Shown here one piece after another: positions 19,085 to 54,129 of a DNA stretch of 56,311 bases. Position 1 is the stretch's first letter. Every line of letters begins with the position of its first letter. The stretch spans positions 1-56,311 of the forward strand of contig JBBSWR010000219.1 of NCBI GenBank assembly GCA_038046185.1, written 5' to 3'. Made by a program: the position numbers and the translations under genes. This DNA is from Nanobdellota archaeon. GTDB taxonomy: Archaea; Nanobdellota; Nanobdellia; Woesearchaeales; GW2011-AR4. The notes beneath the pieces are model-generated. The model saw only the letters and a list, made by a program, of their open reading frames with translations. It made no database searches and was not told where the DNA came from.

Positions 19085-20598
19085 TTTGAACGAACACTTT
19101 TTTCTTTGATCTCTTTAAGAATGGATTTTAATAAATACTTGGCTTTATTGTCTAATAATGATGTCACAACAAAATATCCCAATATACTTACAATTACATA
19201 TGCTAGGAGATTAGGTAAAAACACAACAAGATTATTTGTGTAATAAAGAAAATGATCACTGATAAAATATGTCAAACCAAATACTATTACCGCAGATAAG
19301 ACATAATTCAAAATATGTTTTCTTTTTATTTTTATCATTAAATTGCGTTTCACAAGAACATACAAGTAAAGTGAGAGTGGAATTTGAGTTAATACAGCAA
19401 TAGACGCCCAGAAAATTAATAAATTGACATCAGAAACAGAATAATTTTTCAGGAATAATATGCCTGTTGTGAGAATTACCACATATGTGCAAGTCTGAAT
19501 AAGTCTAAGTGTTGGCGGTAAAAATAATTTACTTTTTACATAGTCTTTGAATGTAGAGGTATTATCTTTATCCACATTTTCAATACCAGCTAAAGACTGT
19601 GTGAAAATATTTGTTAAAACAGTAAAGAATCCATCAACAGCTAAAATCATCACCACTGGAAACACAAATTCATAGATTGGATTAAGAACATACAATCCAG
19701 CACGACTAAAAGTAATAACAACAGATGTTAACAAGATACCAAAAAATAACACGTGTATAATATTGTCTTCCAGATAATCTTTTTTATCACTTCCTAAAAG
19801 CTTGGCATATACACCTCTAGAAATTAATCCTGTATGTGAAATCATACTAGGTAAAACAGATGCTGCTATCCAATATGCCAATCCAATCACCGAACCCATT
19901 AAAATAGTGAATATAGAAATATCCAATCCTGCCACAATGATGGCTATGCTAGGATATGCAGGTATCCAAAAATATTTTAGATATTTTTTTATATATTTAC
20001 TGTTAAAATTATTTTTAAGTTTATCATACGAGTAATAAAACTGGATTACTATACTTACACAATAAGATATGAGAAGTGAGAATAACAATCCAATTATTCC
20101 AATTTCTAAAACATTAACAAAAAGAAATGCAAATGGTATTGATGTTAAACCATAAGCAACTGTGCCATAAACTACAACATGTGGTTTTGAACCAAGATTG
20201 ATTGCAGATAAAATAGAATTTACAAACATCGCTGGAATCAAAATTCCACCCATTAAAAGAATGTCAACTTGTACGTTAGAATAGATACTCATTACATATG
20301 CAATAAAAAGATAAACGATTGTAGCTATGACAGATAAGCCAAAACTTGCTAAAACAGATGTTTTTCCTGAATGAGTATCTCTTGCAATTTCTCGTGTAGT
20401 CCAATACGAAACAATTGGTCCGATCATTAAAACATACAGTAATAATACGTTGATCAATCCCCAAGAACCATATTGCTCAGGACTAAGTGTTCGTGTAATA
20501 ATTAGAGTAAAAATAAGTCCAGTTACGATACTGATTAATCCACCTACAAAAGACAACAATCCGGTGTAAGTAATTCTGATTCCAGACAACTTAGTCAA
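19081..20598 (-). CDS. wzx: Wzx-type oligosaccharide flippase (MOP superfamily polysaccharide biosynthesis protein)
   Basis: 505 aa, hydrophobic throughout (about 12-14 TM). N-terminal ITRTLSPEQYGSWGLI resembles the conserved Wzx/PST motif. Confidence 0.7.
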   Translation of the reverse strand: MTKLSGIRITYTGLLSFVGGLISIVTGLIFTLIITRTLSPEQYGSWGLINVLLLYVLMIGPIVSYWTTREIARDTHSGKTSVLASFGLSVIATIVYLFIAYVMSIYSNVQVDILLMGGILIPAMFVNSILSAINLGSKPHVVVYGTVAYGLTSIPFAFLFVNVLEIGIIGLLFSLLISYCVSIVIQFYYSYDKLKNNFNSKYIKKYLKYFWIPAYPSIAIIVAGLDISIFTILMGSVIGLAYWIAASVLPSMISHTGLISRGVYAKLLGSDKKDYLEDNIIHVLFFGILLTSVVITFSRAGLYVLNPIYEFVFPVVMILAVDGFFTVLTNIFTQSLAGIENVDKDNTSTFKDYVKSKLFLPPTLRLIQTCTYVVILTTGILFLKNYSVSDVNLLIFWASIAVLTQIPLSLYLYVLVKRNLMIKIKRKHILNYVLSAVIVFGLTYFISDHFLYYTNNLVVFLPNLLAYVIVSILGYFVVTSLLDNKAKYLLKSILKEIKEKSVRSK

Positions 20599-31942: not shown

Positions 31943-33064
31943 ATGAGATATTGCTCAAAATGCTTAATGCCTGATACTAGACCAGGAATAAGATTTGTTG
32001 ACGGAGTATGTGTTGCATGCATACATTATGAAAAAAGCAAAAATACAGATTGGGTAAAAAGAATGAACGAGTTTAAACAATTATGTGATAAACATAGAAA
32101 CAGTAATGGTGATAATTATGATTGCGCAATAGCAGTTTCAGGTGGAAAAGACTCTCATTTCCAGGTTCATTATATGAAAGAAGTGATGAAAATGAATCCA
32201 CTTCTTTTATCAGTTGGAAATATTGATTGGACAGATACTGGTAGAAAAAATTTAGAGAATATATCAGAAGTATTTGGGTGTGATGTGATAATGTTACATC
32301 CTAATAGAAAAATTGCAAAAAAAATGTTCAAAAAAGCTTTTGAGAAATTAGGTTCACCATCATGGTATCTAGATTATCAAATGTATTCATTTCCGGTTAG
32401 AATGTGCATAAAATTAGGATTAAAACTTCTGGTTTACGGAGAAGATGTCAATTATACTTATGGTGGAAAATATGATGAAGAAACACCATCAGCAATGTTA
32501 CAGCCACTTAATGACGTATCCAAACCAGTTTGGAAAGAATGGTTTGAAGATGGAGAAATTAATGAAAAAGATATGAATTCAATAATACAACCAACATTAG
32601 AAGAATGTAAAGCAGTAGGATTAGAACCAATTTATTTAAGCTATTTTGTTCCTTGGAATTCTCATCATAATTTTCAGGTTGCTCAGAAATTAGGATTTAG
32701 GCATTTAGGTCATGAGCATGAGAGAGAAGGATCAATTGACAATTATGATCAAATAGATTCAATCAGCTATTTGTTAAATCCTTATATGAAATATCTAAAG
32801 TTTGGGCATGCGGTAGCAACAGACAATGCATCAAGATGGATAAGATATGGAATGAAAACTCGTGAAGAGATGATCCCAATTGTGGAAGAGAAAGATGGTA
32901 AACTAGATCAAGACATTGTTGAAAAATTTTGTGAATTTATAGGTCTTAGCGTAGTAGAATTTTGGAAAATTATGGATAAATGGTATAACAAAGAACTATT
33001 TGAACAAGATAGAGATGGAATTTGGCACCCTAAATTTAGGGTTGGTACTGGATTAATCAAATAA
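31943..33064 (+). CDS. N-acetyl sugar amidotransferase (PP-loop ATPase; WbuX/WbpG/PseA/PtmG family)
   Basis: MRYCSKCLMPDTRPGIRFVDGVCVACIHY N-terminal Zn-ribbon plus AVSGGKDS PP-loop motif. Confidence 0.8.
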   Translation: MRYCSKCLMPDTRPGIRFVDGVCVACIHYEKSKNTDWVKRMNEFKQLCDKHRNSNGDNYDCAIAVSGGKDSHFQVHYMKEVMKMNPLLLSVGNIDWTDTGRKNLENISEVFGCDVIMLHPNRKIAKKMFKKAFEKLGSPSWYLDYQMYSFPVRMCIKLGLKLLVYGEDVNYTYGGKYDEETPSAMLQPLNDVSKPVWKEWFEDGEINEKDMNSIIQPTLEECKAVGLEPIYLSYFVPWNSHHNFQVAQKLGFRHLGHEHEREGSIDNYDQIDSISYLLNPYMKYLKFGHAVATDNASRWIRYGMKTREEMIPIVEEKDGKLDQDIVEKFCEFIGLSVVEFWKIMDKWYNKELFEQDRDGIWHPKFRVGTGLIK

Positions 33065-34713: not shown

Positions 34714-35295
34714 TTAATTTCCATGATGGATTTTATAGACAAATGTATTGGTGTTATTGGAATGATAAAGTAGTTCAAAGTATGGAGGAAGACTATCAGG
34801 ATGTTCTAAAATTGATACATCAGCATAGAAAGTTGGTTTTTGAAACCAAGTAGTATTATTATCATAAGGAATTTTACGATAAATTACATAGTCTGGAATT
34901 GGATTAAACAAATCATTCTTATCTCTAGGATAGCTGTGAATATTAGAAATATAACGATCATATTCGGACCAATTTTTTCTTTTTATGAAATCATGTATTG
35001 AATCGGAGGGTATTCCCTCACGAAAATCGGTATAAAGGAACTTTCCTCCTGAATAGTATGCATAATTTACTAATTCTGCCATTATGTAACTATTTTCAAT
35101 ATTAGATTGATTTTTGAGTAAATTTCCTATGAATTGATATTCATTTACAGAGTTTTCAAATTTTGGTTGTAAGATCTTGGAAAATTCAGATTCAATGGAT
35201 TCAAAGCTATCTCCATACAGAGTAGATGTGAAAAGCTTGTATGAAAATCCAATATTAAGAAGTATTATTATAGAAATTAAAATTATTATTTTCAA
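34714..35295 (-). CDS. TM-anchored extracytoplasmic domain; equivalent to the C-terminal third of the 655-aa GT-C-like protein at 46561..48528
   Basis: TTG start overlapping the upstream TGA (TTGA). NIENSYIMAE...KRKNWSEYDRYISNIHSYPRD...PIPDYVIYR...FELLYHSNNTNTFVYKIHH aligns with ENIENKYVMAR...SRKNWSSYDIYISNIFSFPND...PIPDYIVYQ...FEFLYKSNKTGSVLYKIHH. Confidence 0.7.
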   Translation of the reverse strand: MKIIILISIIILLNIGFSYKLFTSTLYGDSFESIESEFSKILQPKFENSVNEYQFIGNLLKNQSNIENSYIMAELVNYAYYSGGKFLYTDFREGIPSDSIHDFIKRKNWSEYDRYISNIHSYPRDKNDLFNPIPDYVIYRKIPYDNNTTWFQKPTFYADVSILEHPDSLPPYFELLYHSNNTNTFVYKIHHGN

Positions 35296-36614
35296 ATAGT
35301 TTTTTCCCCCTTAGATTTTTTAGTAAAAATTTTGGGTAAAAATTCAATGAGAAAAATTGAATTCAAAATAGAGAAAGGTAATAAAAGAAGTAAAAAATGA
35401 TATGAACGATAGACAGGAATTACTGATAGGAAAGCGAATAATACGACTGATAGAATTAACAATGGAAGAAAATTTGTTTTAATTTTATTTATGGAAAGTA
35501 TTCCTAATGACAACAAAGGAATAAACAGGATAGCAAAATAATGTTCTGAAAATTCTCCAAATAATAACACTAAGAAAAAAACAATACCTAAAATAATTAG
35601 GCTTATCAAGCTTCGTTTATCATTTGAAACTTTTGCAACATAAAAAAAACCCAATGTTACTGTAATAAATCCAATAAAAGGAATTAGAGGTATTAGAGAG
35701 AGATTATCAAAAGTTCCAAAATTAAAAATCTTATTTGGATTATGAGAAAATATGTTAAAAAGATAATTTTTCAAAAATAAATTTGGATCATTAAAGAATA
35801 GTGTAGAAATTCCTTCAGTTCGAAGTTCTTGGACAGATTCATGCCATTCAGGGGTTTGATATTTGAATAAAGCCAATAAATAGAAACTAGTATCATTTTC
35901 CATAGGATTGTTATAAGTAAGATAATTGTAAATTAACATAGGACTAGCAGATATTACAAAAATCAGAGTAAGAATTACAGAATAAGTAAGATTTTGACGA
36001 TGATTCTTATTTCGTAAGAATAAGAAAATGAGAATTCCTAGAACTATGAATATAGATTGATAACGCATCATAAATGATAAACCAAGAAGTAAACCAATAA
36101 TGGCAACATGAGAATTTTTTAAATGTTCTTTTGTTAAAAAATATAAGCTTAGAGTGATTGTAGCAATTGGCATTAATTCGTTAAGTGCAGAAAAAGAAAG
36201 AAATTGAAACCTTGGATTAATTGCTATGAAAACTTGAGAAAGAATTGCAATTTTAGAATTAAATATATTTTTGACAATGAAATAAGAGACTAGTACAATT
36301 ACAGTACCACTGATTAGAGAAAGACCTTTAGCAATTTCAAAAGGTTTTGCAAAGAAATGGTTTAACACTTCATAAATTATTGAAGTTCCAAATGGTGCAC
36401 CTATAATTTGAATATTTTGTGCATTTCCATCAAAAAATTCCTTTCCATTGTAATAATAGTAGATGCCATCTTGTTCTGACCAAACTGTATGATGAAAAAA
36501 ATCGATATATAGCATTGAAAAAAAGAAGATCATTGTAATAATAAGTGGCAATTTATTACTTGAGAAAAAATTTGAGATGAAAGAATGGTTAATAGATGGT
36601 TGTATAAAATTCAA
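35292..36614 (-). CDS. GT-C-like polytopic membrane glycosyltransferase, TM module; equivalent to the N-terminal two thirds of 46561..48528
   Basis: FFHHTVWSEQDGIYYYYNG...AILSQVFIAINPRFQFLS...KYQTPEWHE aligns with FFHHPYWFETDGILYYNWG...ALLGQLFVAINPRLHLLS...KYQTPEWQE. Acidic first-loop motif and many TM segments. Confidence 0.65.
   Translation of the reverse strand: MNFIQPSINHSFISNFFSSNKLPLIITMIFFFSMLYIDFFHHTVWSEQDGIYYYYNGKEFFDGNAQNIQIIGAPFGTSIIYEVLNHFFAKPFEIAKGLSLISGTVIVLVSYFIVKNIFNSKIAILSQVFIAINPRFQFLSFSALNELMPIATITLSLYFLTKEHLKNSHVAIIGLLLGLSFMMRYQSIFIVLGILIFLFLRNKNHRQNLTYSVILTLIFVISASPMLIYNYLTYNNPMENDTSFYLLALFKYQTPEWHESVQELRTEGISTLFFNDPNLFLKNYLFNIFSHNPNKIFNFGTFDNLSLIPLIPFIGFITVTLGFFYVAKVSNDKRSLISLIILGIVFFLVLLFGEFSEHYFAILFIPLLSLGILSINKIKTNFLPLLILSVVLFAFLSVIPVYRSYHFLLLLLPFSILNSIFLIEFLPKIFTKKSKGEKTI
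35300..35310. repeat. T6C5 (G5A6 on the coding strand) homopolymer pair immediately upstream of the GT-C split point
   Basis: Plus strand reads t(6)c(5) at 35300-35310. The coding strand reads aag ggg gaa aaa act att tga, with the downstream ORF open in the -1 frame from ggg gga aaa aac tat ttg. Confidence 0.9.
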
Positions 36615-36618
36615 ATCG

Positions 36619-37725
36619 TCACATATCCATTAATTTAATCTCTTTAGCTTTTTTGACATAGGATAAGATACAATTTTCTGAATAAGGAATAATTTCCTTA
36701 GGATTATTATAGAATGTTTTGTACCAATTAACAGTTTCAGAAATGGTAGTTTTCAAATCAAATACAGATTTCCAATACAATTTTTTTGAAGCTTTTTGAG
36801 AATTTAGAAGAAGGAATTTGGACTCTTTGAAGGATAATTCAGTTTTTGAGGTTTTCCATTCACCTGAGCCCCAATTTTTGATTACCATATCAACCACATT
36901 TTTGACTTTTGTAGGTTTGCGAATATGAGAAGGTCCAAAGTTCCATGAGTCAGCAAAGGAATAATCTGACCACATTTTTACTGTGAGTCTAAGAATTCCA
37001 GAAATAGGTTCTAAAACGTATTGAAATGGTCTTACTGAATCAGGATGTCTTAAAAAAACGGGTAAGTTTTGGGAAAAATGTCTAACGCAATCAGGAATTA
37101 TTCTGTCTGAGGCCCAATCACCACCGCCAATAACATTTCCAGCACGAACCGTAGAGATTCTAGTATGTTGTTCGGTTTCAAAGAAGGATTTTTTATAAGA
37201 ATGAGTAATTATTTCTGCAGCACCTTTACTTGCACTATAAGGATCATTTCCTCCTAAAGGATCATCTTCAACATAAGCACGTGTTGATTCTAAATTTTTG
37301 TAGCATTTGTCACTAGTCATAATAATACACGACTTGACAGAAGAGTTACGAAGTGATTCTAATAGATTGGCAGTTCCCATAATATTTGTTTGAAATGTAT
37401 CAACTGGAGAGAGATATGATTCTTTTACTAATGGTTGAGCAGCTAAATGAATGACGATATCAGGATTATATTTTTTTAATAATTTTTTGATTGTTTGTAT
37501 ATCATTAATATTTCCAAAGTAATGATGAATGCTTTTTTCTAGTTGTAGAGTTTGAAAGAGAGAAGGCTGTGTAGGATAATCTAATGATAATCCAATAATT
37601 TTTGAATTTAATAGTTTTAGCCATAAAGTCAACCAAGAACCTATAAAACCGGTATGACCAGTTATCAGAATGGTTTTTTTATTAAAGAAATCTTTGAATA
37701 TCATTTCAACAATACTATTTCTCAT
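36619..37725 (-). CDS. rfbG: CDP-glucose 4,6-dehydratase
   Basis: FFNKKTILITGHTGFIGSWLTLWLKLLNSKIIGLSLDYPTQPSLF matches the RfbG N-terminal signature (VTGHTGFKGSWLxLWL...PTxPSLF). YSASKGAAE is present. Confidence 0.85.
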   Translation of the reverse strand: MRNSIVEMIFKDFFNKKTILITGHTGFIGSWLTLWLKLLNSKIIGLSLDYPTQPSLFQTLQLEKSIHHYFGNINDIQTIKKLLKKYNPDIVIHLAAQPLVKESYLSPVDTFQTNIMGTANLLESLRNSSVKSCIIMTSDKCYKNLESTRAYVEDDPLGGNDPYSASKGAAEIITHSYKKSFFETEQHTRISTVRAGNVIGGGDWASDRIIPDCVRHFSQNLPVFLRHPDSVRPFQYVLEPISGILRLTVKMWSDYSFADSWNFGPSHIRKPTKVKNVVDMVIKNWGSGEWKTSKTELSFKESKFLLLNSQKASKKLYWKSVFDLKTTISETVNWYKTFYNNPKEIIPYSENCILSYVKKAKEIKLMDM

Positions 37726-37745
37726 AGTTATCTATGTTTTATGGA

Positions 37746-38758
37746 TTACGAGTGTGAATTTCTAGTCAATTCAATTAATTCCTGTACTCTCAGACCATCT
37801 TCAAAATCAGGCTTGGAAGAAATTCCATTTTCACACCAATGAATAAATCGTTTAGCAATTGGCAAAATTGCTTTGATTCGAGGATCTTCAGTCGGATCAA
37901 CATTGATGAAATGGTTTGTGGGTAAAATAGGCTTTTTTTCATCATTTGTGGAAAGGAATAATTCAAAACCGTCTACAATATTTGTAGTCAAGTTTTGTAG
38001 AACGATATTACCCCTATTAGAGAAAAATTCTAATTTATGAATCGGAGTTCCTGAAAAAGCAATATCCAAATCTATTTGACCATAACAGCCACTTTCAAAC
38101 AGAACATTCATAGATACTCCTGTTTCTGCATGATTAACACTTTTCTTTGAATAAGAGAAGGCAGAGTCTATGGATTGAATTTTACCTAAAAAAAATTCCA
38201 TATAATGAAAAGTATGTGAACAAAAATGAGAAAGAGCTCCACCCCCTTGAGTTTTATCGGTTTTCCAAGAATTAATTCTGTTTTTCGAGTCATAGCTAAG
38301 AAATTTCCATTCAACTTTAAATTGAGAAATATTGCCTAATATGTTACTAATAAGAATTTTTTTGGTTTCTTTCCATTCTGGAATTTCTGGAAAAAGAAAA
38401 TCCATCATATTTGGCAAGCTTTTTTTTTGGCTAATTTTGTTAATTCTATGGAATCATCTAAAGAAACAGTTAATGGTTTTTCAGCAAAAACTCCAATATT
38501 ATTATCTAAAGCAAACTTGGCTATTTCGTATTGATGACTTGGAACTACTGCAACTGCAATAGCATCTGGTTTTTGTTTTTGAATCATCTCTTTCCAATTT
38601 GAATATCTTTTAACATTATATTTTGTACAGAAATTTTCCATCCTAGTTGAATTTCTTCCAGAAATACTGATTACCTCACATTCATTAATAGCACTAAATG
38701 TAGGTAAAAGACCATACATTCCAAATCCTGAACCGATTATAGCTATATTTGTAGTCAT
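37746..38758 (-). pseudogene. Gfo/Idh/MocA oxidoreductase split into two ORFs (38405..38758 Rossmann domain; 37746..38417 C-terminal domain) by a frameshift in an A9 tract
   Basis: The N-terminal ORF (IAIIGSGFGMYG...VFAEKPLT...LAKKKACQI*) stops 5 codons after the A9 run. The C-terminal ORF (QGGGALSHFCSHTFHYMEFFLG domain) is open in the -1 frame through the run. One extra A would give KKKSLPNMMDF in frame. It could instead be a sequencing error or a slippage-decoded gene. Confidence 0.65.
38420..38428. repeat. T9/A9 homopolymer at the Gfo/Idh/MocA frameshift point
   Basis: Counted directly: t at 38420 plus tttttttt at 38421-38428, flanked by c and gg. Confidence 0.95.
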
Positions 38759-38759
38759 T

Positions 38760-40022
38760 TTAGTTCTCCAAAATTTTTAGATCTGGTAAAGGTATAACAA
38801 ATTTGGATTTTAAGCCTCTTTCCTTTAATTGCTTAATTATCGATTCAGCATAATGCCATGCTAAAAGAATTACATAGTCAGGTTGCTTACGCAAGAGAGA
38901 TTCATTATTTACAATTGGGATATGTTTTCCAGGTAAGAATTTTCCAAGTTTTAAGGAAGTTGGCTGTTCAGTGATATACGGAATCATCTCTGCATCTACT
39001 CCGTAGTAATTTAGCAGAGTTACACATCTGCCAGGACATGAATTGGCTATAATTGATTTATCATTTTTGTTTAATTCTAATAATAGATTTAGAAAATCTT
39101 TTTTTGCTTTTTTAACACGTTTAGCAAAAGTTCTATAAGTTTCTAGTTTGTATAGACCAGATTCTTCTTCTAAGATAAGTAAAGATGATACATTTTGAGA
39201 AATTGGTCTATTTTTTCCTTTAGTGACATGTAATCGTATGTTACCACCATATCTACTTCCTCTTTCAACGTCAGTTACAGTAAAATTGTAATAGCTGAAA
39301 AGTTTCATGAGTGATTTCAGAGAATATGTTCTAAGATGCTCATGGTATATTGTATCAAACTGTCCACCTTTAATAACATCTAACAGGTAATGACATTCTA
39401 AAACAAACACACCGTCATCGGTTAATAAGTCCCCAATTCCAGTAATTACTTCTCCTATAGAAGCCATATGTGCAAACATATTGGTGGAGATAATTAATGA
39501 AGCACAGCCAAAGTTTTGTTTGATTTCTGAAGCAGTGTTGGTATTGAAAAATTTTTGTATAGTTTCTATTCCATTTTCATTTGCGATTTTTGCAATGTTA
39601 GTTGGTTCGACTCCAAGAACTTTCAAAGCTTTTTGTTTAAATTCCATCAATAATGTTCCATCGTTTGAACCTATATCCACTACCAAATCATTTTTTTTCA
39701 ATTCGTATTTTGATATGAGAGAGTTTCCCATTTCATTTAGATATTCTACTAATTCTTTAGTTACTCCTGTTCTATATGGATAATCTAAGTGAAAAACTGT
39801 GCTTCCATCAACACAATAATCTATTTGTACTAAAGAGCAATCCTCACACCAAATCATTCGTAAAGGATAAGTTATTTCTGGTTCATTGATTGTTTCAGGT
39901 GTAAGAAGTGAATCACATAGAGGTTGATGTCCAAGATCAAGAATTAGGTGAAGATTGTCTGAGTTACATACCTGACATTTGTCAATATGACCAACAGGTA
40001 CTTGATGATGTGCTGGATACAT
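38760..40022 (-). CDS. NDP-hexose C-methyltransferase family protein, paralog 3 of 3
   Basis: CQVCNS...CEDCSLVQI ribbon, VVDIGSNDGTLL SAM motif and FDTIYHEHLRTYS. A 1-nt gap separates it from the downstream oxidoreductase gene. Confidence 0.75.
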   Translation of the reverse strand: MYPAHHQVPVGHIDKCQVCNSDNLHLILDLGHQPLCDSLLTPETINEPEITYPLRMIWCEDCSLVQIDYCVDGSTVFHLDYPYRTGVTKELVEYLNEMGNSLISKYELKKNDLVVDIGSNDGTLLMEFKQKALKVLGVEPTNIAKIANENGIETIQKFFNTNTASEIKQNFGCASLIISTNMFAHMASIGEVITGIGDLLTDDGVFVLECHYLLDVIKGGQFDTIYHEHLRTYSLKSLMKLFSYYNFTVTDVERGSRYGGNIRLHVTKGKNRPISQNVSSLLILEEESGLYKLETYRTFAKRVKKAKKDFLNLLLELNKNDKSIIANSCPGRCVTLLNYYGVDAEMIPYITEQPTSLKLGKFLPGKHIPIVNNESLLRKQPDYVILLAWHYAESIIKQLKERGLKSKFVIPLPDLKILEN

Positions 40023-40038
40023 TATATTGATGTTTGAT

Positions 40039-40060
40039 TAAATACACATAAGTGTATTTA
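40039..40060. promoter_or_regulatory. Perfect 9-bp inverted repeat (taaatacac ataa gtgtattta) in a divergent intergenic region
   Basis: Read directly. It lies 17 nt from the minus-strand start (40022) and about 100 nt from the plus-strand start (40162). It could be a dimeric regulator site or a hairpin. Confidence 0.3.
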
Positions 40061-40161
40061 TTTTAATTAAAGAGGGAGATTAATATAAAAATAAATATTT
40101 CAAAAACTAATCCTACAGTTAATTAAATAGTTTATTAACTTTATAGATAGCTCTTATCTTT

Positions 40162-41184
40162 ATGGGAAAATTATACCTTTCAATTTTCATAAGTTTTGTA
40201 ATCCTATTTTTTGTTCACATAGCATTTTTTATTTTAAATTTATTTTTCTGGATCACGGATGGCGTAAATGTCTTAATAGAAGGGGGAAATCTTATTGAAA
40301 ATATCTATTACTCAAAATATTTGAAATGGGTGATTTTGGTAGATACAGTTTGGCTAATAATTGCTCTTGGTTTTGCATTCAAAAGAAAATCATATAAAAC
40401 TGATATAGAATTACATTATTTGCAAAATTATGAAAATCAAATTCCAAATGTTTGTGTAATGATTCCCACGTATAATGAAGAAGAAAATATCGAGTCTGTT
40501 GTTAAAGGGTTTTTTTCACAAGATTATGTAAAAAAGGTAATTGTAGTGGACAATAACAGTTCAGATCAAACTGTAGAAATTGCAAAAAAAAATGGCGCAA
40601 CAGTAATAGAAAAAAAAGTCAATAAAGGACACACAGATTCTTGCATTATAGGATTTAGAGAATCATTAAAGACAGATGCTAACATAATTGGGTTTTCAGA
40701 TGCAGATGGAACCTTTTCCCCAAACGATCTCGAAAAAATGATTCCATATTTAAAAAACTGTGACATGGTGGTGGGTACAAGACAAGTGCAAACTCTGACA
40801 GAAAAAGGAAATCAGAATAGCATGTTTTATGTTTGGGGAAATTTGTTTTTAGCAAAATTATTACAAATAAAATATTTTAGTTTAGCACATTTTGGAATAG
40901 TTCAATTAACCGATGTAGGATGTTCTTATAGAGTTATTCGCAGAGAAGCATTGCTTAAAATTATTGAGAAATTAACAAATCCCGAAGATAAGGCTATTTT
41001 AGATCCAAAAAATTGGTTATTTTCATTGTATATGACTATGTTAGCTATTGAAAAAGATTTGAAAATAGTAGAAGTTCCATTAACATTTAGAAAACGTTTT
41101 GGTGTATCAAAATCTGAGGTTACAAAAAAATCTAAAGGAATTAAGTTTGGATTAAAATTTTTATGGTTTATTCTTAAAAGATGA
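40162..41184 (+). CDS. GT2 glycosyltransferase with N-terminal TM helices (polyprenyl-phosphate sugar synthase-like), paralog A
   Basis: CVMIPTYNEEENIESVV, VVDNNSSDQTVEIAKKNGATVIEKK, SDADGT (DxD). Colinear with 45531..46547. Confidence 0.8.
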   Translation: MGKLYLSIFISFVILFFVHIAFFILNLFFWITDGVNVLIEGGNLIENIYYSKYLKWVILVDTVWLIIALGFAFKRKSYKTDIELHYLQNYENQIPNVCVMIPTYNEEENIESVVKGFFSQDYVKKVIVVDNNSSDQTVEIAKKNGATVIEKKVNKGHTDSCIIGFRESLKTDANIIGFSDADGTFSPNDLEKMIPYLKNCDMVVGTRQVQTLTEKGNQNSMFYVWGNLFLAKLLQIKYFSLAHFGIVQLTDVGCSYRVIRREALLKIIEKLTNPEDKAILDPKNWLFSLYMTMLAIEKDLKIVEVPLTFRKRFGVSKSEVTKKSKGIKFGLKFLWFILKR

Positions 41185-41273
41185 TTTTTTATGAAATTTA
41201 GATGAAACTCAAAACTCGGTTATGCTGTATAAAGAATTTAAAAACATAAAAACTAATCAATAAAAGTAAACCT

Positions 41274-42221
41274 ATGGAAAAAATTTTGATTACAGGTGGT
41301 GCAGGGTTTTTAGGCGCAAATTTAATTCATAGATTGCTTAAGTCAAAAAACGAAATAATTACAATTATTAAACCAAATTCAAATGAATGGAGAATTTCAG
41401 AAGTAAAAAATAAAATCAAAGTTTATCACATAGATATACTTAATGAAAGGAAAATTTCTAATACAATTAAAGAGATAAAACCTTCTTTAATATTTCATTG
41501 TGCAACATATGGGGTTAATCCATCTCAAGATAATTTTGGAAAAATCTTTCAAACAAATGTTTTTGGCACAAATAATATTTTTTCAACTATTCAAAAAATT
41601 AATTGTGTAAAGAAAATTATTAATTTTGGAAGTTCTTTTGAATATGCTACTCAAAAACTCCCCGTCAAAGAGACTGATATAATATCACCTAATACAGTTT
41701 ATGGTATTTCAAAAGCTACACAAACAAACTTAGCTCAATATTATGCAGAAAATTTAGGATTGCCCATAGTGACAGCAAGGATTTTTACGCCATATGGAAA
41801 ATATGATTCTAATGGAAGACTTTTTTCAGATTTAATGATTTCAGCAATAAAAGGAAGACAAATTAAATTAGGTTTTCAAGATTCGTTTAGAGATTTTATC
41901 CATATTGATGATGCAATAGATATTTTATTATTAATTGCTAAAGATATGAAGAATAAAACAGGTATTTTTAACATTGGGACCGGAAAAAAATCTTCTGTCA
42001 AACAAATTATGAGATTATGCGAAAAAAAAATGAAAATTAAATATCATGCATCATGGGGAAATGAGACTAATATACGAAAAATAGATAGATTTTCAGAAGT
42101 TGCAATAGCAGATATGCAAAAAACACAACATGTTTTTCACTGGAAACCAAAAATTACTATTGATGAGGGAGTTAAAAAAACGTATTCATGGTATTTGAAA
42201 AATTTTGAATTGTATAAATAA
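41274..42221 (+). CDS. Extended-SDR nucleotide-sugar epimerase/reductase (candidate CDP-4-keto-3,6-dideoxyhexose reductase or epimerase)
   Basis: KILITGGAGFLGANLIHRLL and YGISKATQ (YxxxK); 315 aa. Abuts convergent rfbH with zero intergenic bases. The role is inferred from context only. Confidence 0.7.
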   Translation: MEKILITGGAGFLGANLIHRLLKSKNEIITIIKPNSNEWRISEVKNKIKVYHIDILNERKISNTIKEIKPSLIFHCATYGVNPSQDNFGKIFQTNVFGTNNIFSTIQKINCVKKIINFGSSFEYATQKLPVKETDIISPNTVYGISKATQTNLAQYYAENLGLPIVTARIFTPYGKYDSNGRLFSDLMISAIKGRQIKLGFQDSFRDFIHIDDAIDILLLIAKDMKNKTGIFNIGTGKKSSVKQIMRLCEKKMKIKYHASWGNETNIRKIDRFSEVAIADMQKTQHVFHWKPKITIDEGVKKTYSWYLKNFELYK

Positions 42222-43580
42222 TTATTTTTTATTAAAAAATAAGTCAAAAGTTTGGATAACATAATCCAGCATTTCTTTTGTCAAACCTGGATAAACACCA
42301 ATCCAGAATGAATTGGATGTTATCATCTCTGTGTTTCTAAGCGAACCGTTAATTCGGTATTTGATATTTTTAAAATATGGTTGTTTTGTAATATTTCCTG
42401 CAAACAATGGTCTAGTATCAATTAATTTGGAACTGAGAAATTCAATAAGATCTTTTTTTGTGTAAGATAAATTCTCTTTAATTGTAATAGTAAATCCGAA
42501 CCATGAAGGATCACTGTTTGGTGTGGATTCAGGTAAAATTAAATTATCTTCAAATTGTTTTAATCCTTTTTTAAGATATGAAAAATTATTTTTTCTGGTT
42601 TGAATAAAATGTTCTAAATTATTTAATTGAGCTAATCCTACGGAAGCTTGCATATCAGTTATTTTAAAATTATATCCAAGATGTGAATAAATGAATTTGT
42701 GATCATACCCATATGGCATTTCACCGATTTTCCATTCGAATCTTTTTCCACAAGTATTATTGTGTCCAGGAGCACAAAAACAATCCCTACCCCAGTCTCT
42801 AAACGATTCTAAAATTCTTTTTAATTTTGGATCATCAGTGAAAACTGCTCCTCCTTCACCCATAGTTATATGATGAGCAGGGTAAAAACTCAGAGTTCCC
42901 AGATTACCAAATGTGCCAACAGATTTACCTGCAAAAAGACTACCTAATGCATCACAACAATCTTCAATTAGCCATAAATTATGATCTTTTGCTAATTTAC
43001 TGATTTTTTCTGCATCAAATGGATTACCTAGTGTGTGTGTAAGCATAATTGCCCGAGTTTTATCGGAAATTGCATCCTCCACAAGTTTGTAATTTGGAAC
43101 GTATGTAGGAATATCAACATCGATGAATACAGGCACTAAATTGTTTTGAATGATGGGATTAACAGTTGTAGGGAATCCTGCAGCCAAAGTTATGACCTCA
43201 TCATTAGGTAATAATCTACGTTCGCCCAATTGATCAGAGGTTAAGGCAGATAAAGCCAAAAGATTTGCTGATGAACCAGAATTAACAGTAATAACAAAAT
43301 TAGAATTTAGTTTTTTACCTAGAACTCGTTCAAATTCAGAATTAAATCGTCCTGAAGTTAACCAAAAGTCTAGAGAAGAAGAAACAAGCATTTGTAAGTC
43401 ATTTTCGTCAAAAACTTTTCCAGCAACTGGTACAATAGATTTACCTGGACAAAACGGTTTTCTAGAATGAGTGATGACCGAATATTTTTTAACTAAATTT
43501 AGAATGTCTTCTCGCAATTTTGCTGAATTTTCATTCGCATCTAACAAAGAATTCCTTAGAAAGTCATCTAATTCAATCAA
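42222..43580 (-). CDS. rfbH: CDP-6-deoxy-D-xylo-4-hexulose-3-dehydrase (E1; RfbH/DdhC/AscC-type, PMP- and [2Fe-2S]-dependent)
   Basis: SFYPAHHITMGEGGAV has His where aminotransferases have the PLP Lys. Cys209-X57-Cys267-X1-Cys269-X7-Cys277 (EDCCD...RDCFCAPGHNNTC) matches the E1 iron-sulfur motif as I recall it. Confidence 0.85.
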   Translation of the reverse strand: MIELDDFLRNSLLDANENSAKLREDILNLVKKYSVITHSRKPFCPGKSIVPVAGKVFDENDLQMLVSSSLDFWLTSGRFNSEFERVLGKKLNSNFVITVNSGSSANLLALSALTSDQLGERRLLPNDEVITLAAGFPTTVNPIIQNNLVPVFIDVDIPTYVPNYKLVEDAISDKTRAIMLTHTLGNPFDAEKISKLAKDHNLWLIEDCCDALGSLFAGKSVGTFGNLGTLSFYPAHHITMGEGGAVFTDDPKLKRILESFRDWGRDCFCAPGHNNTCGKRFEWKIGEMPYGYDHKFIYSHLGYNFKITDMQASVGLAQLNNLEHFIQTRKNNFSYLKKGLKQFEDNLILPESTPNSDPSWFGFTITIKENLSYTKKDLIEFLSSKLIDTRPLFAGNITKQPYFKNIKYRINGSLRNTEMITSNSFWIGVYPGLTKEMLDYVIQTFDLFFNKK

Positions 43581-43589
43581 TTTATCTAA

Positions 43590-44354
43590 TTACCAAATTT
43601 TCCAAGCAGCTTGATTTGATGTCCATAGTGATTCTAAATAATTTTTGTCACGAATTGTATCCATAGATTGCCAAAATCCAGTATGTTTGAAGGCTCCCAA
43701 TTGACCATTCTTTGAAAGAGTTTCTAAAGGTGTGCGTTCAAAAACAGTATTATCGTCTTGGATATAATCCATTATAGATGGTTCAAATACAAAAAATCCT
43801 CCATTGATCCAAGAATAATCACCTGATGGTTTTTCTTGAAATCTAGATACGTTGTTTTGTTCAATTTCTAAAATTCCAAATCTGCCGGGAGGTTGAACAG
43901 CTGTTAGAGTTCCAATGAACTTATTTTTTTGGTGAAAATCAATTAATTTTTGTATATTGACATTAGAAACGCCATCTCCATAAGTGAGACAAAAAGTATC
44001 ATCAACATAATTAGAAATGCGTTTAATTCGTCCACCGGTCATGGTATTTTCTCCTGTATCAACCAAGGTTATTTTCCATGGTTCAACATTTGAAGAATGG
44101 ATTTCTAAATTATTTTTTTGAATGTCAATAGTGATATCTGACATATGTAGATTATAGTTTGCAAAAAATTCTTTAATTTGATATCCTTTGTAACCTAAAC
44201 ATATAACAAATTCATTAATGTCATATGCGCTATAAATTTTCATTATATGCCACAATATTGGCATACCACCTATTTCGATCATAGGTTTAGGTTTTAGATA
44301 AGATTCCTCTGAAATGCGTGTTCCAATACCACCAGCCAAAATTACAGCTTTCAT
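43590..44354 (-). CDS. rfbF: Glucose-1-phosphate cytidylyltransferase
   Basis: MKAVILAGGIGTRISEESYLKPKPMIEIGGMPILWHIMKIYSAYDINEFVICLGYKGYQIKEFFANY is near-canonical RfbF. Confidence 0.9.
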   Translation of the reverse strand: MKAVILAGGIGTRISEESYLKPKPMIEIGGMPILWHIMKIYSAYDINEFVICLGYKGYQIKEFFANYNLHMSDITIDIQKNNLEIHSSNVEPWKITLVDTGENTMTGGRIKRISNYVDDTFCLTYGDGVSNVNIQKLIDFHQKNKFIGTLTAVQPPGRFGILEIEQNNVSRFQEKPSGDYSWINGGFFVFEPSIMDYIQDDNTVFERTPLETLSKNGQLGAFKHTGFWQSMDTIRDKNYLESLWTSNQAAWKIW

Positions 44355-44532: not shown

Positions 44533-45480
44533 ATGAAAAAATCAAATTTGATTAAAAATAATGGATTTAGTATCATAATTATCATCATGATAACATATGT
44601 GGGAATTGTTCTTTATTCCGACATTAATAAAATATCTTCAATTTTTTACAATATAAAATACGAATTTTTAGTAATAATAATTGGATTGCAAATGATTTCA
44701 TTTTCTTTAAGAAGTTATAGACAAAAAAAATTCTTAGAAAGCTCCGGTATAAAATTATCATTTTGGGAAAATTTTAAAATTTGTCTTGCAGGAATGTCGA
44801 TGATAGTAACTCCCGGCGGAGCAGGGATGTTAATTAAATCACATTTTTTAAAAAGAAAATATGGGTTTTCAGTTTCAAGAACAGCTCCAATGATTCTTGC
44901 AGAAAGATATCATGATTTTTTAGCTGTTACGACAATTTTGTTACTTTCATTAATAGTAGTGTTCTCAATACACGTGGTAATTAGTGGAACTGTTGCATTA
45001 ATTTTACTATTTTTAGTATATTTAATAATTAGAAATCATGATTGGTTAGAAAAATTTGAACAAACAATTATTCGAAAAAAAATTTTTCAAAAAATCTTTC
45101 CATCAGATTTAAACATATCAGACTCGGTGAATTCATTAAAAACTCCTAGAATTATTGGATTCGGATGGATAATTAGTACAATTTTATGGATCATTGATGC
45201 TTTTGCAATCTTTTTTGGATTTGTTGCACTCGATGTTGATATTGGAGTTGTTGAGTCAATTCAAATATTTTTTTCATCATTAATTTATGGCATTATTTCA
45301 TTTTTGCCTGCAGGAATAGGTGTAACTGAAGGTATTTTTATTGGGTTATTACTTAAACATGATGTAAAATTGTCAATAGCTACTGCATTAATACTATTTA
45401 TAAGATTAACCACAGTTTGGTTTCTAACTTTTGTAGGATTTGTAACGATGAAGTTTTTTCTTGGAAATGAAAAAACCTGA
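44533..45480 (+). CDS. UPF0104 / LPG-synthase-TM family membrane protein (flippase-like domain)
   Basis: About 8 TM segments with two PGG/PAG-G-x-x-E type motifs (IVTPGGAGMLIKS, LPAGIGVTEGIF), typical of this family. Confidence 0.65.
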   Translation: MKKSNLIKNNGFSIIIIIMITYVGIVLYSDINKISSIFYNIKYEFLVIIIGLQMISFSLRSYRQKKFLESSGIKLSFWENFKICLAGMSMIVTPGGAGMLIKSHFLKRKYGFSVSRTAPMILAERYHDFLAVTTILLLSLIVVFSIHVVISGTVALILLFLVYLIIRNHDWLEKFEQTIIRKKIFQKIFPSDLNISDSVNSLKTPRIIGFGWIISTILWIIDAFAIFFGFVALDVDIGVVESIQIFFSSLIYGIISFLPAGIGVTEGIFIGLLLKHDVKLSIATALILFIRLTTVWFLTFVGFVTMKFFLGNEKT

Positions 45481-45530
45481 AATAGAGATTGAGTTTTAAA
45501 GAGATAGTCAGAATAACAAAAAGAAAACAA

Positions 45531-46547
45531 ATGGGAAAAATTTACCTTACTTTAGCATTATCATTTTTAGTTCTATGTATAGTTAATCTAGTTTTTGTTA
45601 CATTAAGTCTTATTTTTTTGGCTATCAATGGTTTACAAGCACTACTTAATGGAATGAGTTTTGTAGAAAGAATTTACTTTTCTATGTACATTAAATGGAT
45701 TTTATTAGCTGACTTGATTTGGTTATGTTTTGCATTAATGTTTTTACTTAAAAGAAAACGCTATAGGACTGGATCATCAGATTATCTTAATAACAATCCA
45801 ATTATAAATCCAAAAATCACAATTGTAATTCCAGCTTATAATGAAGAAAATAATGTTGCAAATGTAATTAATGATTACAAGTCACAGAAACATGTAGAAA
45901 ATGTCATAGTAGTTGATAATCATAGTAGTGATCAAACGGTATCTATTGCAAAAAAATCTGGTGCGCTTGTTATTGAGAAAAAAGAGAATAAAGGATTTGC
46001 TGATTCATGTTTGCAGGGGTTAAAAAAAGCTCTAGAAACAAATGCCAATGTAATTGTTTTAACAGAATGTGATAGAACCTACGTAGGACATGATATGGAA
46101 AAACTAGTACCTTATCTAGATGAATGTGATATGGTGATAGGAACTAGATTAATTCAAGTGTTAACAGAAAAAAATAACCAAAATGGTATGTTCAATACTT
46201 GGGGTAATTTTTTTCTTGCAAAATTGATTCAATTAAAATATTTTAGTTTGTTACATATGGGAATAGTGTCATTTACTGATGTAGGATGTACTTACAGATG
46301 TATTAGAAGAGATGCATTAGAAAAACTAATCAATAAAATGATTGAAGACTATAACAGGAATATTGATCCTGATGGCTGGGCATTTATACCGTATTTTAAT
46401 ATGATCGGAATTGAAAATGAGCTCAAAATTGTTGAAATCCCGATCACATTCAGAAAAAGACATGGTGAATCAAAATCACAGGCAAATAAAAAGACAAAAG
46501 GAATTTTGTATGGATTAAGGTTTATCTGGTTCATAATCAAAACCTAA
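45531..46547 (+). CDS. GT2 glycosyltransferase with N-terminal TM helices, paralog B
   Basis: The ORF track starts at 45489, but ATG 45531 gives MGKIYLTLALSF, colinear with the paralog A start MGKLYLSIFISF. ITIVIPAYNEENNV, VVDNHSSDQTVSIAKKSGALVIEKK. Confidence 0.8.
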   Translation: MGKIYLTLALSFLVLCIVNLVFVTLSLIFLAINGLQALLNGMSFVERIYFSMYIKWILLADLIWLCFALMFLLKRKRYRTGSSDYLNNNPIINPKITIVIPAYNEENNVANVINDYKSQKHVENVIVVDNHSSDQTVSIAKKSGALVIEKKENKGFADSCLQGLKKALETNANVIVLTECDRTYVGHDMEKLVPYLDECDMVIGTRLIQVLTEKNNQNGMFNTWGNFFLAKLIQLKYFSLLHMGIVSFTDVGCTYRCIRRDALEKLINKMIEDYNRNIDPDGWAFIPYFNMIGIENELKIVEIPITFRKRHGESKSQANKKTKGILYGLRFIWFIIKT

Positions 46548-52851: not shown

Positions 52852-54129
52852 ATGAAAGAAAATAACGATAAAAGTCAGTCATTTTCTTCAGTTTCAAGGA
52901 ATATCCCTTTGATAGTCTTTTTGTTCTCAATTGTTATAGTTATGATTAGCTTTGTATCAGTTATTTTTCCTGCATTAATTGTAGGCTCTAATACAACAAT
53001 TATCCCAAATATTCAACCAGTACTGCCCAATCTATTTGAATTAGGAGTATGGTCGTATGGCGTTATAATTTCATCAATTGTTATTTTTGGATTATTGTAT
53101 TTATTTTATAAAAATAAACTATCAAGTTCAATTTCCAAACTATTTAAAAAAATATTTAATTTTGAAGTTTCAAAAAAGACTGCATTTATCACATTAGTTG
53201 TTATTTTAGTAGTCTATGTAGGATTTACAACCTCAGAATTATGGCAGCAAGAAACTTGGGAAGACTACCAACCAATAAAGAAAAGACTGCAGGAATCAAT
53301 TAGAGACAACAGATGGACTATCGAAGATGCCATTAATGGAAACCCAAATTATCCAAAAGATGAACCACATGTAACGTATACACTGTTATTGATTTCCTTA
53401 AAGTTATTTGGAAATGATAAGATAGTTCCTTTTCTTGCAAGTATTGGTTTACTAGTAATAACTTATTTGATTACTACAAAAATTACTCAAAAAAGATTTG
53501 CTGGAATTGTTGCTTTTATTATTATTATTCAGAGTAATTTGTTTTTAACTTATGACACTTCGGCTACATATACCAATTTTTGGGTTTTATTTTATCTGTT
53601 ATCTCTGTATGCAGTGTATAGATTCTGGCAACTTTCCCCAATATCATATCTTATTTCAATTCCAGCAAAGGTGCTAACTGTAGCATTTTTACCCATGTCA
53701 ATTTACTTTATTTTAAGATCAGATATATCAAAAAAGAGTAAAATTGTTGTTACATTATCTACCATAGCAATCATAGCTGCAGTTGGCATTACTGCAATGT
53801 CTATGAGCTCAGGTGGTGAGGCAATGCAAGAAAGTTTTGATGCAAAAGAATTTTGGATGGGTTTTACATCTTTTTCGTACCAGCTAAGAACAGATGGACT
53901 AGTCTTATTATTTATGATTCCATTAATGGTAGGATTGTTCCTAGTATCAAAAAGAGGAGTAAAACACGGAGAGTCAATCATGGTATTAATCTCAGGAATA
54001 CTTCTAATAGTTCCAATACTAACTGGTTTTACAAATCAGACAAACCAGCCGTATAGATTCATGCCACTGGTAGTATTTTTTGCAATAGGTGTTGGAGTAT
54101 TACTATCAAAAAGAGAGTCTAAGATATAG
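52852..54129 (+). CDS. Polytopic membrane protein, possible GT-C/ArnT-like glycosyltransferase
   Basis: 425 aa with about 10 hydrophobic segments. EPHVTYTLLLISLKLFGNDKIVPFLASIGLLVITYL resembles the PPLxYWL...FG...R block of GT39/GT83 enzymes. Weak call. Confidence 0.4.
   Translation: MKENNDKSQSFSSVSRNIPLIVFLFSIVIVMISFVSVIFPALIVGSNTTIIPNIQPVLPNLFELGVWSYGVIISSIVIFGLLYLFYKNKLSSSISKLFKKIFNFEVSKKTAFITLVVILVVYVGFTTSELWQQETWEDYQPIKKRLQESIRDNRWTIEDAINGNPNYPKDEPHVTYTLLLISLKLFGNDKIVPFLASIGLLVITYLITTKITQKRFAGIVAFIIIIQSNLFLTYDTSATYTNFWVLFYLLSLYAVYRFWQLSPISYLISIPAKVLTVAFLPMSIYFILRSDISKKSKIVVTLSTIAIIAAVGITAMSMSSGGEAMQESFDAKEFWMGFTSFSYQLRTDGLVLLFMIPLMVGLFLVSKRGVKHGESIMVLISGILLIVPILTGFTNQTNQPYRFMPLVVFFAIGVGVLLSKRESKI

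Follow-up and report, generated by a model that had tools for sequence, protein, structure and literature searches.

Among the classic reactions of radical and pyridoxamine 5'-phosphate (PMP) enzymology is the removal of the C-3 hydroxyl group from a nucleotide-activated hexose by the dehydrase E1, which is taught as a two-protein system. In Yersinia pseudotuberculosis and Salmonella, E1 and its flavin- and [2Fe-2S]-containing reductase E3 belong to enzyme sets (AscA-F, DdhA-D, RfbF/G/H/I) that lead to CDP-ascarylose, CDP-abequose, CDP-paratose and CDP-tyvelose. ColD, the GDP-4-keto-6-deoxymannose 3-dehydratase of colitose biosynthesis, shares the fold of E1, its His-for-Lys replacement and the deoxygenation at C-3, but needs no reductase; it lacks the iron-sulfur (Fe-S) cysteines, regenerates PMP with glutamate and acts in a GDP-mannose context. 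A third enzyme, SpnQ, is the TDP-4-keto-2,6-dideoxyglucose 3-dehydrase of the spinosyn forosamine pathway in Saccharopolyspora spinosa; this E1 homologue carries a [2Fe-2S] cluster and uses either ferredoxin with ferredoxin reductase or flavodoxin with flavodoxin reductase (PMC8987622). According to the same review, the four-Cys [2Fe-2S] motif together with the catalytic His is found in E1 and SpnQ, and not in ColD (PMC8987622). Here we compare with these systems the rfbF, rfbG and rfbH genes located on a stretch of 56,311 nucleotides (contig JBBSWR010000219.1 of the archaeal assembly GCA_038046185.1), which we refer to in its full length as the window. An earlier note on this DNA had pointed to an E1-type RfbH that lacks a recognizable E3 partner, and had concluded that its reaction requires one. 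We consider it reasonably probable that RfbH instead carries out an E1-type C-3 deoxygenation fed by a housekeeping ferredoxin-NADP reductase (FNR) and a ferredoxin, and that it does so within a flexible surface-glycosylation island of the Nitrosopumilaceae, a family of ammonia-oxidizing archaea (AOA).

The RfbF/RfbG/RfbH core and its E1-type dehydrase

The open reading frames (ORFs) named in the earlier note are present at the positions collected in Table 1, and its description of RfbF and RfbG as near-canonical agrees with matches that exceed the curated equivalog cut-offs in both cases. RfbF of the window is 69% identical to its orthologues in metagenome-assembled genomes (MAGs) of Thaumarchaeota; its gene lies 9 nt upstream of rfbH, and rfbG is found 4.5 kb away within the same island. 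The match of RfbH to the model NF011936 spans residues 16-451. When searched against known structures, RfbH aligns with the Y. pseudotuberculosis E1 (PDB 3bcx) over 431 residues (20-450; E 2.6e-184), while the ColD structure (PDB 2gms) is recovered with an E value of 1.7e-57 and 198 bits, as compared to 616 bits for E1.

The catalytic and cluster-binding residues follow the same pattern. The segment FYPAHHITMGEGG corresponds to A235-G244 of the RfbH translation and is part of the wider stretch PAHHITMGEGG; H236 within it aligns with the Lys residue of the H220K mutant structure 3bb8 and is hence the equivalent of His220 of E1, so that the His-for-Lys substitution reported before stands. The same holds for the cysteine spacing that had been given as identical to that of the Yersinia enzyme: Cys209, Cys267, Cys269 and Cys277 form a C-X57-C-X1-C-X7-C motif and align, with an offset of 16, with Cys193, Cys251, Cys253 and Cys261 of 3bcx. 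The position assigned to this motif, nt 42750-42956, is correct for a minus-strand gene that starts at 43580. H236 and all four cysteines are unchanged in 12 diverse homologues and in every archaeal orthologue checked. Their invariance at sequence identities of just 47-68% argues for selection on the cluster. Judged from these alignments, RfbH is a genuine E1-type dehydrase and not a ColD-type enzyme.

The window thus shares with Yersinia and Salmonella orthologous RfbF, RfbG and RfbH proteins that score above the cut-offs, as well as the same catalytic His and the same C-X57-C-X1-C-X7-C motif. It differs from them in its setting, an archaeal S-layer host rather than the O-antigen of lipopolysaccharide, in its flanking genes, which encode a glycosyltransferase of family 2 (GT2) of the dolichyl-phosphate type and a GT-C glycosyltransferase instead of O-unit genes of the Wzx/Wzy type, and in the additional presence of a C-methyltransferase and a GFO-type reductase. 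RfbH is a true orthologue within the E1 family and part of an RfbF/RfbG/RfbH core, and the feature, real as it is, is a fairly ordinary one.

Absence and distribution of the dedicated reductase E3

NCBIfam holds no model that is specific for E3; a real E3 matches models of the Fre/BenC/AntC type below their cut-offs. We therefore built a profile hidden Markov model from the E3 protein of an Aeromonas ddh cluster (locus L011, 7036-8010), in which the genes are ordered E3-RfbF-RfbG-RfbH and followed by YerE-like and YerF-like genes, and from six further E3 sequences. This profile found no match among the stop-to-stop frames of the window, all of which were searched down to a length of 90 amino acids (aa). 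Likewise, Pfam scans of the window ORFs with a length of 100 aa or more (five short frames, overlapping or located at an edge, being set aside) revealed no Fer2, FAD_binding_6 or NAD_binding_1 domain. The statement that the window contains no gene resembling a ferredoxin-NADP reductase is therefore upheld by both approaches. Unlike in Yersinia and Salmonella, E1 is not accompanied by E3 (AscD, RfbI), and the canonical two-component arrangement is absent.

The genome from which the window was reported is of little help in this matter. Its assembly (323 contigs, 78.6% complete) consists mostly of contigs with 37-40% GC, while the window, at 29.5% GC, is an extreme outlier in a principal component analysis of the tetranucleotide composition of the bin. 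The PGI protein encoded in the window is 74-77% identical to proteins of Nitrosarchaeum and Nitrosopumilus; the RfbF, RfbH, GT2 and PGI genes are syntenic with contigs annotated as 'Thaumarchaeota archaeon', and nearly identical contigs are contained in groundwater assemblies from Hainich H41. The core genes of N. koreense find counterparts in the rest of the bin at just 33-43% identity, and the cytochrome oxidase genes of this archaeon were looked for in the bin and not found. Within the GTDB family to which the bin belongs (70 genomes), there are only four RfbH orthologues at 47-48% identity and one weaker match at 39%. By its composition and gene affinities, the window is a glycan island of the Nitrosopumilaceae that was binned by mistake into the archaeal MAG of another family. 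Large and variable glycosylation islands of 50-90 kb have already been described from marine AOA (bioRxiv 10.1101/2024.04.23.590705).

Because the contig is a mis-binned fragment, the absence of E3 from the assembly is no valid test for the strain. The genome-wide search that the earlier note had recommended was run, and it detected only a fragment of the hydrogenase-gamma/PyrK type (contig C73) and a PyrK protein (C95); on the grounds just given, we rejected the assembly as a test for E3. Since low-GC glycan islands are easily mis-binned, arguments from gene absence in such MAGs are unsafe in general. Six further contigs of the bin (C246, C281, C272, C116, C140 and C59; 29-33% GC) may also be foreign.

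A more suitable comparison is provided by the Nitrosopumilaceae themselves. Among 348 genomes of this family with a completeness of at least 80%, six possess RfbH (59-67% identity). In none of these six genomes was E3 found; the profile recovered only matches confined to the FNR domain that scored 31-56 bits, versus 470-512 bits for the controls, and one marginal match of 16 bits to the ferredoxin part of the profile in genome G356. The very same FNR-domain matches are obtained with N. koreense, which lacks RfbH. They represent PyrK and two plain FNR paralogues (FAD_binding_6 plus NAD_binding_1, approximately 280 aa), a pair that each of the examined Nitrosopumilaceae genomes contains. Several small Fer4 ferredoxins are also present in the AOA genomes examined, in which the sole Fer2 match is a protein of approximately 250 aa that carries a Fer4 domain as well and that, at a guess from its domain architecture, is SdhB-like. 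The two plain FNR paralogues readily suggest themselves as candidates for supplying electrons in a generic manner. In genome G319, they are encoded approximately 11 kb apart (L103 1483-2328 and L108 951-1793); the N. koreense gene L104 1483-2322 is an orthologue of one of them, and a second match of the FNR type lies approximately 11 kb away from it.

On a 1.64-Mb contig, genome G319 contains an operon in the order RfbF-RfbG-RfbH, an RmlC-like 3,5-epimerase and a short-chain dehydrogenase/reductase (SDR) (L107 8569-13240; G319:C1, approximately 334.5-339.2 kb). As read from its gene content, this operon is an asc-like gene set for CDP-ascarylose minus AscD, and its last two members, an AscE-like epimerase and an AscF-like reductase, liken it to the Yersinia asc cluster. 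Ten metagenome loci of the AOA type (L003-L008 and L095-L097; approximately seven distinct kinds) have no E3 within their available flanks either. The situation in these archaea corresponds to that of SpnQ: an Fe-S motif is present in the dehydrase, and no dedicated reductase is encoded in the cluster or in the genomes of the six relatives.

We extended the comparison to 80 bacterial RfbH loci among the matches listed (L009-L088), which encode proteins with 55-61% identity to RfbH of the window. E3 was present within up to 10 kb of rfbH in only seven of these loci, and the count stayed at seven when only those 55 loci were considered in which 5 kb or more is available on either side of rfbH (again among the matches listed). 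Where E3 occurs, its gene is positioned just upstream of rfbF, approximately 2-3 kb from rfbH. In a phylogenetic tree of RfbH, the seven E3-linked sequences fall into two small proteobacterial subclades, and nine AOA sequences form a monophyletic group (support 0.999) nested among those of bacteria. Genome-wide searches of 13 RfbH-possessing bacteria without a linked E3 disclosed a full-length E3-like gene elsewhere in three genomes (318-340 bits) and a Fer2-FNR protein in two (approximately 200 bits); the remaining eight contained no full-length E3-like gene and gave only partial matches of 50-135 bits. Hence, most of the prokaryotes with RfbH do without E3, and a dedicated E3 is an addition that only some Proteobacteria possess.

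In view of this distribution and the precedent of SpnQ, the missing E3 is neither an anomaly of the locus studied here nor one of the archaea. In our view, the mildly surprising general point to emerge from this comparison is that E1 is only exceptionally accompanied by a dedicated E3 in prokaryotes.

Predicted electron supply and route to a surface sugar

In the pathway that we envision, RfbF would form CDP-glucose, and RfbG would convert it into CDP-4-keto-6-deoxy-D-glucose. RfbH would then form a PMP adduct of this compound and expel the 3-hydroxyl group with the aid of H236, and the resulting glucoseen intermediate would be reduced in two one-electron steps via the enzyme's own [2Fe-2S] cluster. 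The electrons would pass from NAD(P)H to a housekeeping flavoprotein of the plain FNR type, from there to a small ferredoxin and finally to E1. The adjacent SDR may reduce or epimerize the 4-keto product to yield a CDP-3,6-dideoxyhexose. At the 4-keto-6-deoxy stage, the C-methyltransferase and the GFO oxidoreductase could branch off towards a CDP-6-deoxy-3-C-methylhexose, for which CDP-vinelose of Azotobacter is a precedent, or they might methylate the deoxygenated product; we infer the order of methylation, like the stereochemistry of the final sugar. The GT2 enzymes would transfer the CDP-sugar or CDP-sugars to dolichyl phosphate, and after flipping across the membrane, GT-C enzymes of the PMT_2 family would attach them on the cell exterior; a lipid-phosphate carrier and a GT-C enzyme thus probably convey the sugar to a surface glycan.

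With respect to its predicted electron supply, RfbH of the window functionally resembles SpnQ, a PMP-dependent E1 homologue that has the four-Cys [2Fe-2S] motif and whose gene cluster likewise encodes no dedicated reductase (PMC8987622). The two differ in that SpnQ is part of a secondary-metabolite gene cluster, while the enzyme of the window is closely orthologous to RfbH and stands in a CDP-glucose context.

Alternatively, E1 might be served specifically in E3-less organisms by a reductase or ferredoxin that is not homologous to E3, its gene being one of those without annotation in the island or located in another part of the genome. That E3 is missing from most lineages with RfbH makes a widespread alternative partner conceivable, and the island contains several ORFs without a Pfam match that could be considered for this role (52852-54129, 31943-33064, 15217-16794 and 19081-20598). 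Clustering of the ORFs in 86 RfbH loci (among those listed) showed RfbG as a neighbour of RfbH in 74 and RfbF in 65 of them, followed by a YerE-like thiamine diphosphate-dependent enzyme in 34 (including the archaeal-type loci L095 and L097) and a GtrB-like GT2 in 22, with a NeuB-like protein, a C-methyltransferase and a transketolase as other frequent companions; a recurrent redox-type neighbour was not among them, and no ORFs with Cys motifs were detected near rfbH in the archaeal loci. Furthermore, generic donors suffice for SpnQ (PMC8987622). We therefore deem a dedicated donor of this kind improbable. As the YerE-like enzyme, and not E3, is the most frequent companion of RfbH after RfbG and RfbF, yersiniose-type 3,6-dideoxy sugars with a branched chain may occur far more widely than the simple sugars of O-antigens.

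Somewhat less credible still is the idea that RfbH operates in E3-less hosts without any reduction of its cluster, either in the manner of ColD, by hydrolysis of an enamine and regeneration of PMP with glutamate, or as a 4-aminotransferase that leads to a 4-amino-4,6-dideoxy sugar or another product. ColD proves that the fold can deoxygenate without an Fe-S cluster, and SpnQ acts as a transaminase in the absence of a reductase (PMC8987622); E1 and ColD, however, display no transaminase activity under the conditions used for SpnQ (PMC8987622). A ColD-like mode is also at odds with the far lower score of RfbH against ColD than against E1, and with the retention of H236 and of the four cysteines that ColD lacks, which extends over the AOA, the Woesearchaeota family and the E3-less bacterial orthologues. 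It is very unlikely that E3 is present in the source organism and was simply missed: a mis-binned contig in an incomplete MAG indeed permits no genome-wide statement on the source strain, but in the E3-bearing loci found here the gene lies close to rfbH, the 56-kb window has none, and neither the six RfbH-positive Nitrosopumilaceae genomes, one with a contig of 1.64 Mb, nor the ten AOA-type loci contain it.

Several considerations weigh against a supply of RfbH by housekeeping FNR and ferredoxin and against the surface sugar proposed above. The E3 profile was derived from seven proteobacterial sequences only and could therefore miss an E3 that has diverged strongly, and the absence of E3 in the source strain is extrapolated from six relatives because the bin is chimeric. 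That the cluster assembles in RfbH and is reduced by FNR and ferredoxin is something we infer by analogy, and SpnQ, on which this analogy leans, accepts a TDP-2,6-dideoxy substrate and not a CDP-sugar. We know of no precedent for the use of CDP-sugars by GT2 enzymes of the DPM/GtrB type. A literature search yielded no chemical report of a 3,6-dideoxyhexose from any archaeon, nor did the archaeal glycan analyses it brought up mention C-methyl-branched relatives of such sugars, and the one marine AOA examined by glycoproteomics, N. piranensis, exhibited no N-glycans (PMC12153357). The only AOA glycan whose structure has been solved, that of Nitrososphaera viennensis, contains no 3,6-dideoxyhexose (PMC12153357).

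The earlier note had been unaware of 3,6-dideoxyhexoses in archaea. Our literature searches for RfbH or 3,6-dideoxyhexoses in archaea, and for Nitrosopumilus in combination with CDP-glucose, likewise returned nothing relevant; RfbH genes are, however, already annotated as such in public Thaumarchaeota MAGs. The archaeal occurrence of the pathway is consequently new to the literature searched, but not to the databases.

A broader interpretation may be entertained, although we hold it to be rather doubtful: the E1/E3 pair of the textbooks would be peculiar to Proteobacteria, and most prokaryotic E1 enzymes, including the archaeal one studied here, would depend on a different electron supply not yet characterized for any E1 acting on a CDP-sugar (in the Nitrosopumilaceae, one of the two conserved plain FNR paralogues plus a ferredoxin). 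The product would be the first archaeal 3,6-dideoxyhexose, possibly branched by a 3-C-methyl group in a form without a described counterpart, and displayed on the S-layer via CDP-sugar, dolichyl phosphate and GT-C transferase. Irrespective of this broader view, if the pathway proposed above holds, some of the ammonia-oxidizing archaea, which are nitrifiers of global importance, would bear 3,6-dideoxy and possibly C-methyl-branched sugars on their surface, and glycans of this kind, encoded in flexible islands, would likely determine recognition by viruses and grazers.

Gene neighbourhood and layout of the island

According to Pfam scans, the 56-kb contig constitutes a single glycan-biosynthesis island. 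It encodes three C-methyltransferases, several GFO and SDR enzymes, glycosyltransferases of the GT1, GT2 and GT-C types, and a nonulosonic-acid cluster, with housekeeping genes (PGI, ThiS-ThiF) confined to its right end. Around the core, the minus strand carries the genes for the C-methyltransferase, the GFO oxidoreductase, RfbG and the GT-C enzyme in this order; a divergent plus-strand pair, GT2 and then SDR, follows, and RfbH and RfbF are again encoded on the minus strand (Table 1).

Table 1. Position, strand and basis of assignment of the core genes and their neighbours in the window
Feature	Position	Strand	Basis
GT-C (PMT_2/ArnT-like) glycosyltransferase, 440 aa plus overlapping 193-aa ORF	34714-36614	-	Pfam PMT_2
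RfbG/DdhB/AscB, CDP-glucose 4,6-dehydratase	36619-37725	-	TIGR02622 equivalog, 421.8 bits (cut-off 278)
GFO/IDH/MocA NAD(P) oxidoreductase, candidate keto-reductase of the C-methyl branch	37746-38758	-	Pfam GFO_IDH_MocA + GFO_IDH_MocA_C
NDP-hexose C-methyltransferase (Zn-binding N-domain, S-adenosylmethionine domain, C-domain)	38760-40022	-	Pfam Methyltransf_13/23/14
GT2 with N-terminal transmembrane helices, probable polyprenyl/dolichyl-phosphate sugar synthase (AglJ/ArnC/GtrB-like)	40162-41184	+	Pfam Glycos_transf_2
Extended SDR, probable CDP-4-keto-3,6-dideoxyhexose 4-reductase or epimerase	41274-42221	+	Pfam Epimerase/GDP_Man_Dehyd
RfbH/DdhC/AscC (E1), PMP/[2Fe-2S]-type CDP-4-keto-6-deoxyglucose 3-dehydrase	42222-43580	-	NF011936, 702.1 bits (cut-off 423)
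RfbF/DdhA/AscA, glucose-1-phosphate cytidylyltransferase (CDP-D-glucose maker)	43590-44354	-	TIGR02623, 440.6 bits (cut-off 300), full length 1-254
Second transfer module: LPG_synthase_TM (flippase-like)	44533-45480	+	Pfam
Second transfer module: GT2	45489-46547	+	Pfam
Second transfer module: GT-C, 655 aa	46561-48528	-	Pfam

The SDR gene abuts rfbH tail-to-tail, base to base, and the same convergent adjacency is found in the loci L003 and L004 and in genome G415. The best structural matches of the protein are the 4-ketoreductase Rmd (PDB 2pk3; 1.5e-26) and the CDP-tyvelose 2-epimerase (9rl0/1orr); it possesses the motifs SSFEY...YGISK and lacks the acid/base pair D-E of the dehydratases. Its proposed role as terminal reductase or epimerase is hence plausible. 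So is the formation of a branched derivative, which had been suggested because a C-methyltransferase and an oxidoreductase are co-operonic with RfbG: the best structural matches of the methyltransferase are the D-mycarose 3-C-methyltransferase MtmC (PDB 4rv9; 2.4e-75), followed by KijD1 and TcaB9, all of them sugar 3-C-methyltransferases.

The predicted transfer functions recur in related loci. The GT2 enzyme encoded between the C-methyltransferase and the SDR is 60% identical to a GT2 that adjoins RfbFGH in Thaumarchaeota contigs, and its best NCBIfam matches are AglJ, PpgS, a dolichyl-phosphate hexose transferase and ArnC, all below the cut-off. The 193-aa ORF that overlaps the GT-C gene is the counterpart of the outer domain at the C-terminus of the 655-aa paralogue and aligns with the C-terminal region of PMT_2 proteins of 657 aa in the loci L005-L008; the split into 440 and 193 aa is also found in L003. 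In the second module, the GT2 and GT-C enzymes are 53% and 40% identical, respectively, to proteins encoded by genes that flank RfbFGH in the Thaumarchaeota loci L005-L008, and the trio of LPG_synthase_TM, GT2 and GT-C adjoins RfbFGH in L095 and L097 as well. A GT2, a flippase-like protein and a GT-C enzyme are thus repeatedly found beside RfbFGH in archaeal loci, with LPG_synthase_TM as the flippase-like member in the window and GtrA in L005-L008. This arrangement is reminiscent of the Gtr (GtrA/GtrB/GtrC), ArnC/ArnT and archaeal AglJ/AglD systems, in which such genes likewise stand beside sugar-nucleotide genes. It departs from them in that the donor would be a CDP-sugar and in that the GT2 matches in the window all remain below the NCBIfam cut-offs, while those to PMT_2 and LPG_synthase_TM are significant by Pfam.

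The reading frame of the GFO gene is broken at a run of nine A residues on the minus strand (38428-38420), which leaves two ORFs of 117 aa (38405-38758) and 220 aa (37746-38417). Full-length homologues (335-343 aa) read LAKKK[R/G/V]LPNM.DF across the break, and the protein of the window would read LAKKK-SLPNMMDF if the frame shifted by -1 or if one A were added at the run; the corresponding junction peptide of the frame-restored product would be LAKKKSLPNMMDF. The lineage of L003 and L004, in which the two parts of GFO share 70% and 67% identity with those of the window, has the same A9 run and the same break, and the run was seen in six independent assemblies. Downstream of it, the codon differences between the window and L003/L004 are synonymous in the -1 frame and non-synonymous in the 0 frame. 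This pattern makes conserved ribosomal frameshifting or transcriptional slippage candidate explanations of the break, as is a split two-piece enzyme with ATGA coupling. A search of the PDB with the C-terminal piece of the GFO protein gave no match.

The three C-methyltransferases of the island are paralogues of the Methyltransf_13/14 type, encoded at 3952-5163 (minus strand), 9359-10588 (plus strand) and 38760-40022 (minus strand). As each of them adjoins SDR or GFO reductases of its own, the island may direct the synthesis of several different C-methyl-branched sugars.

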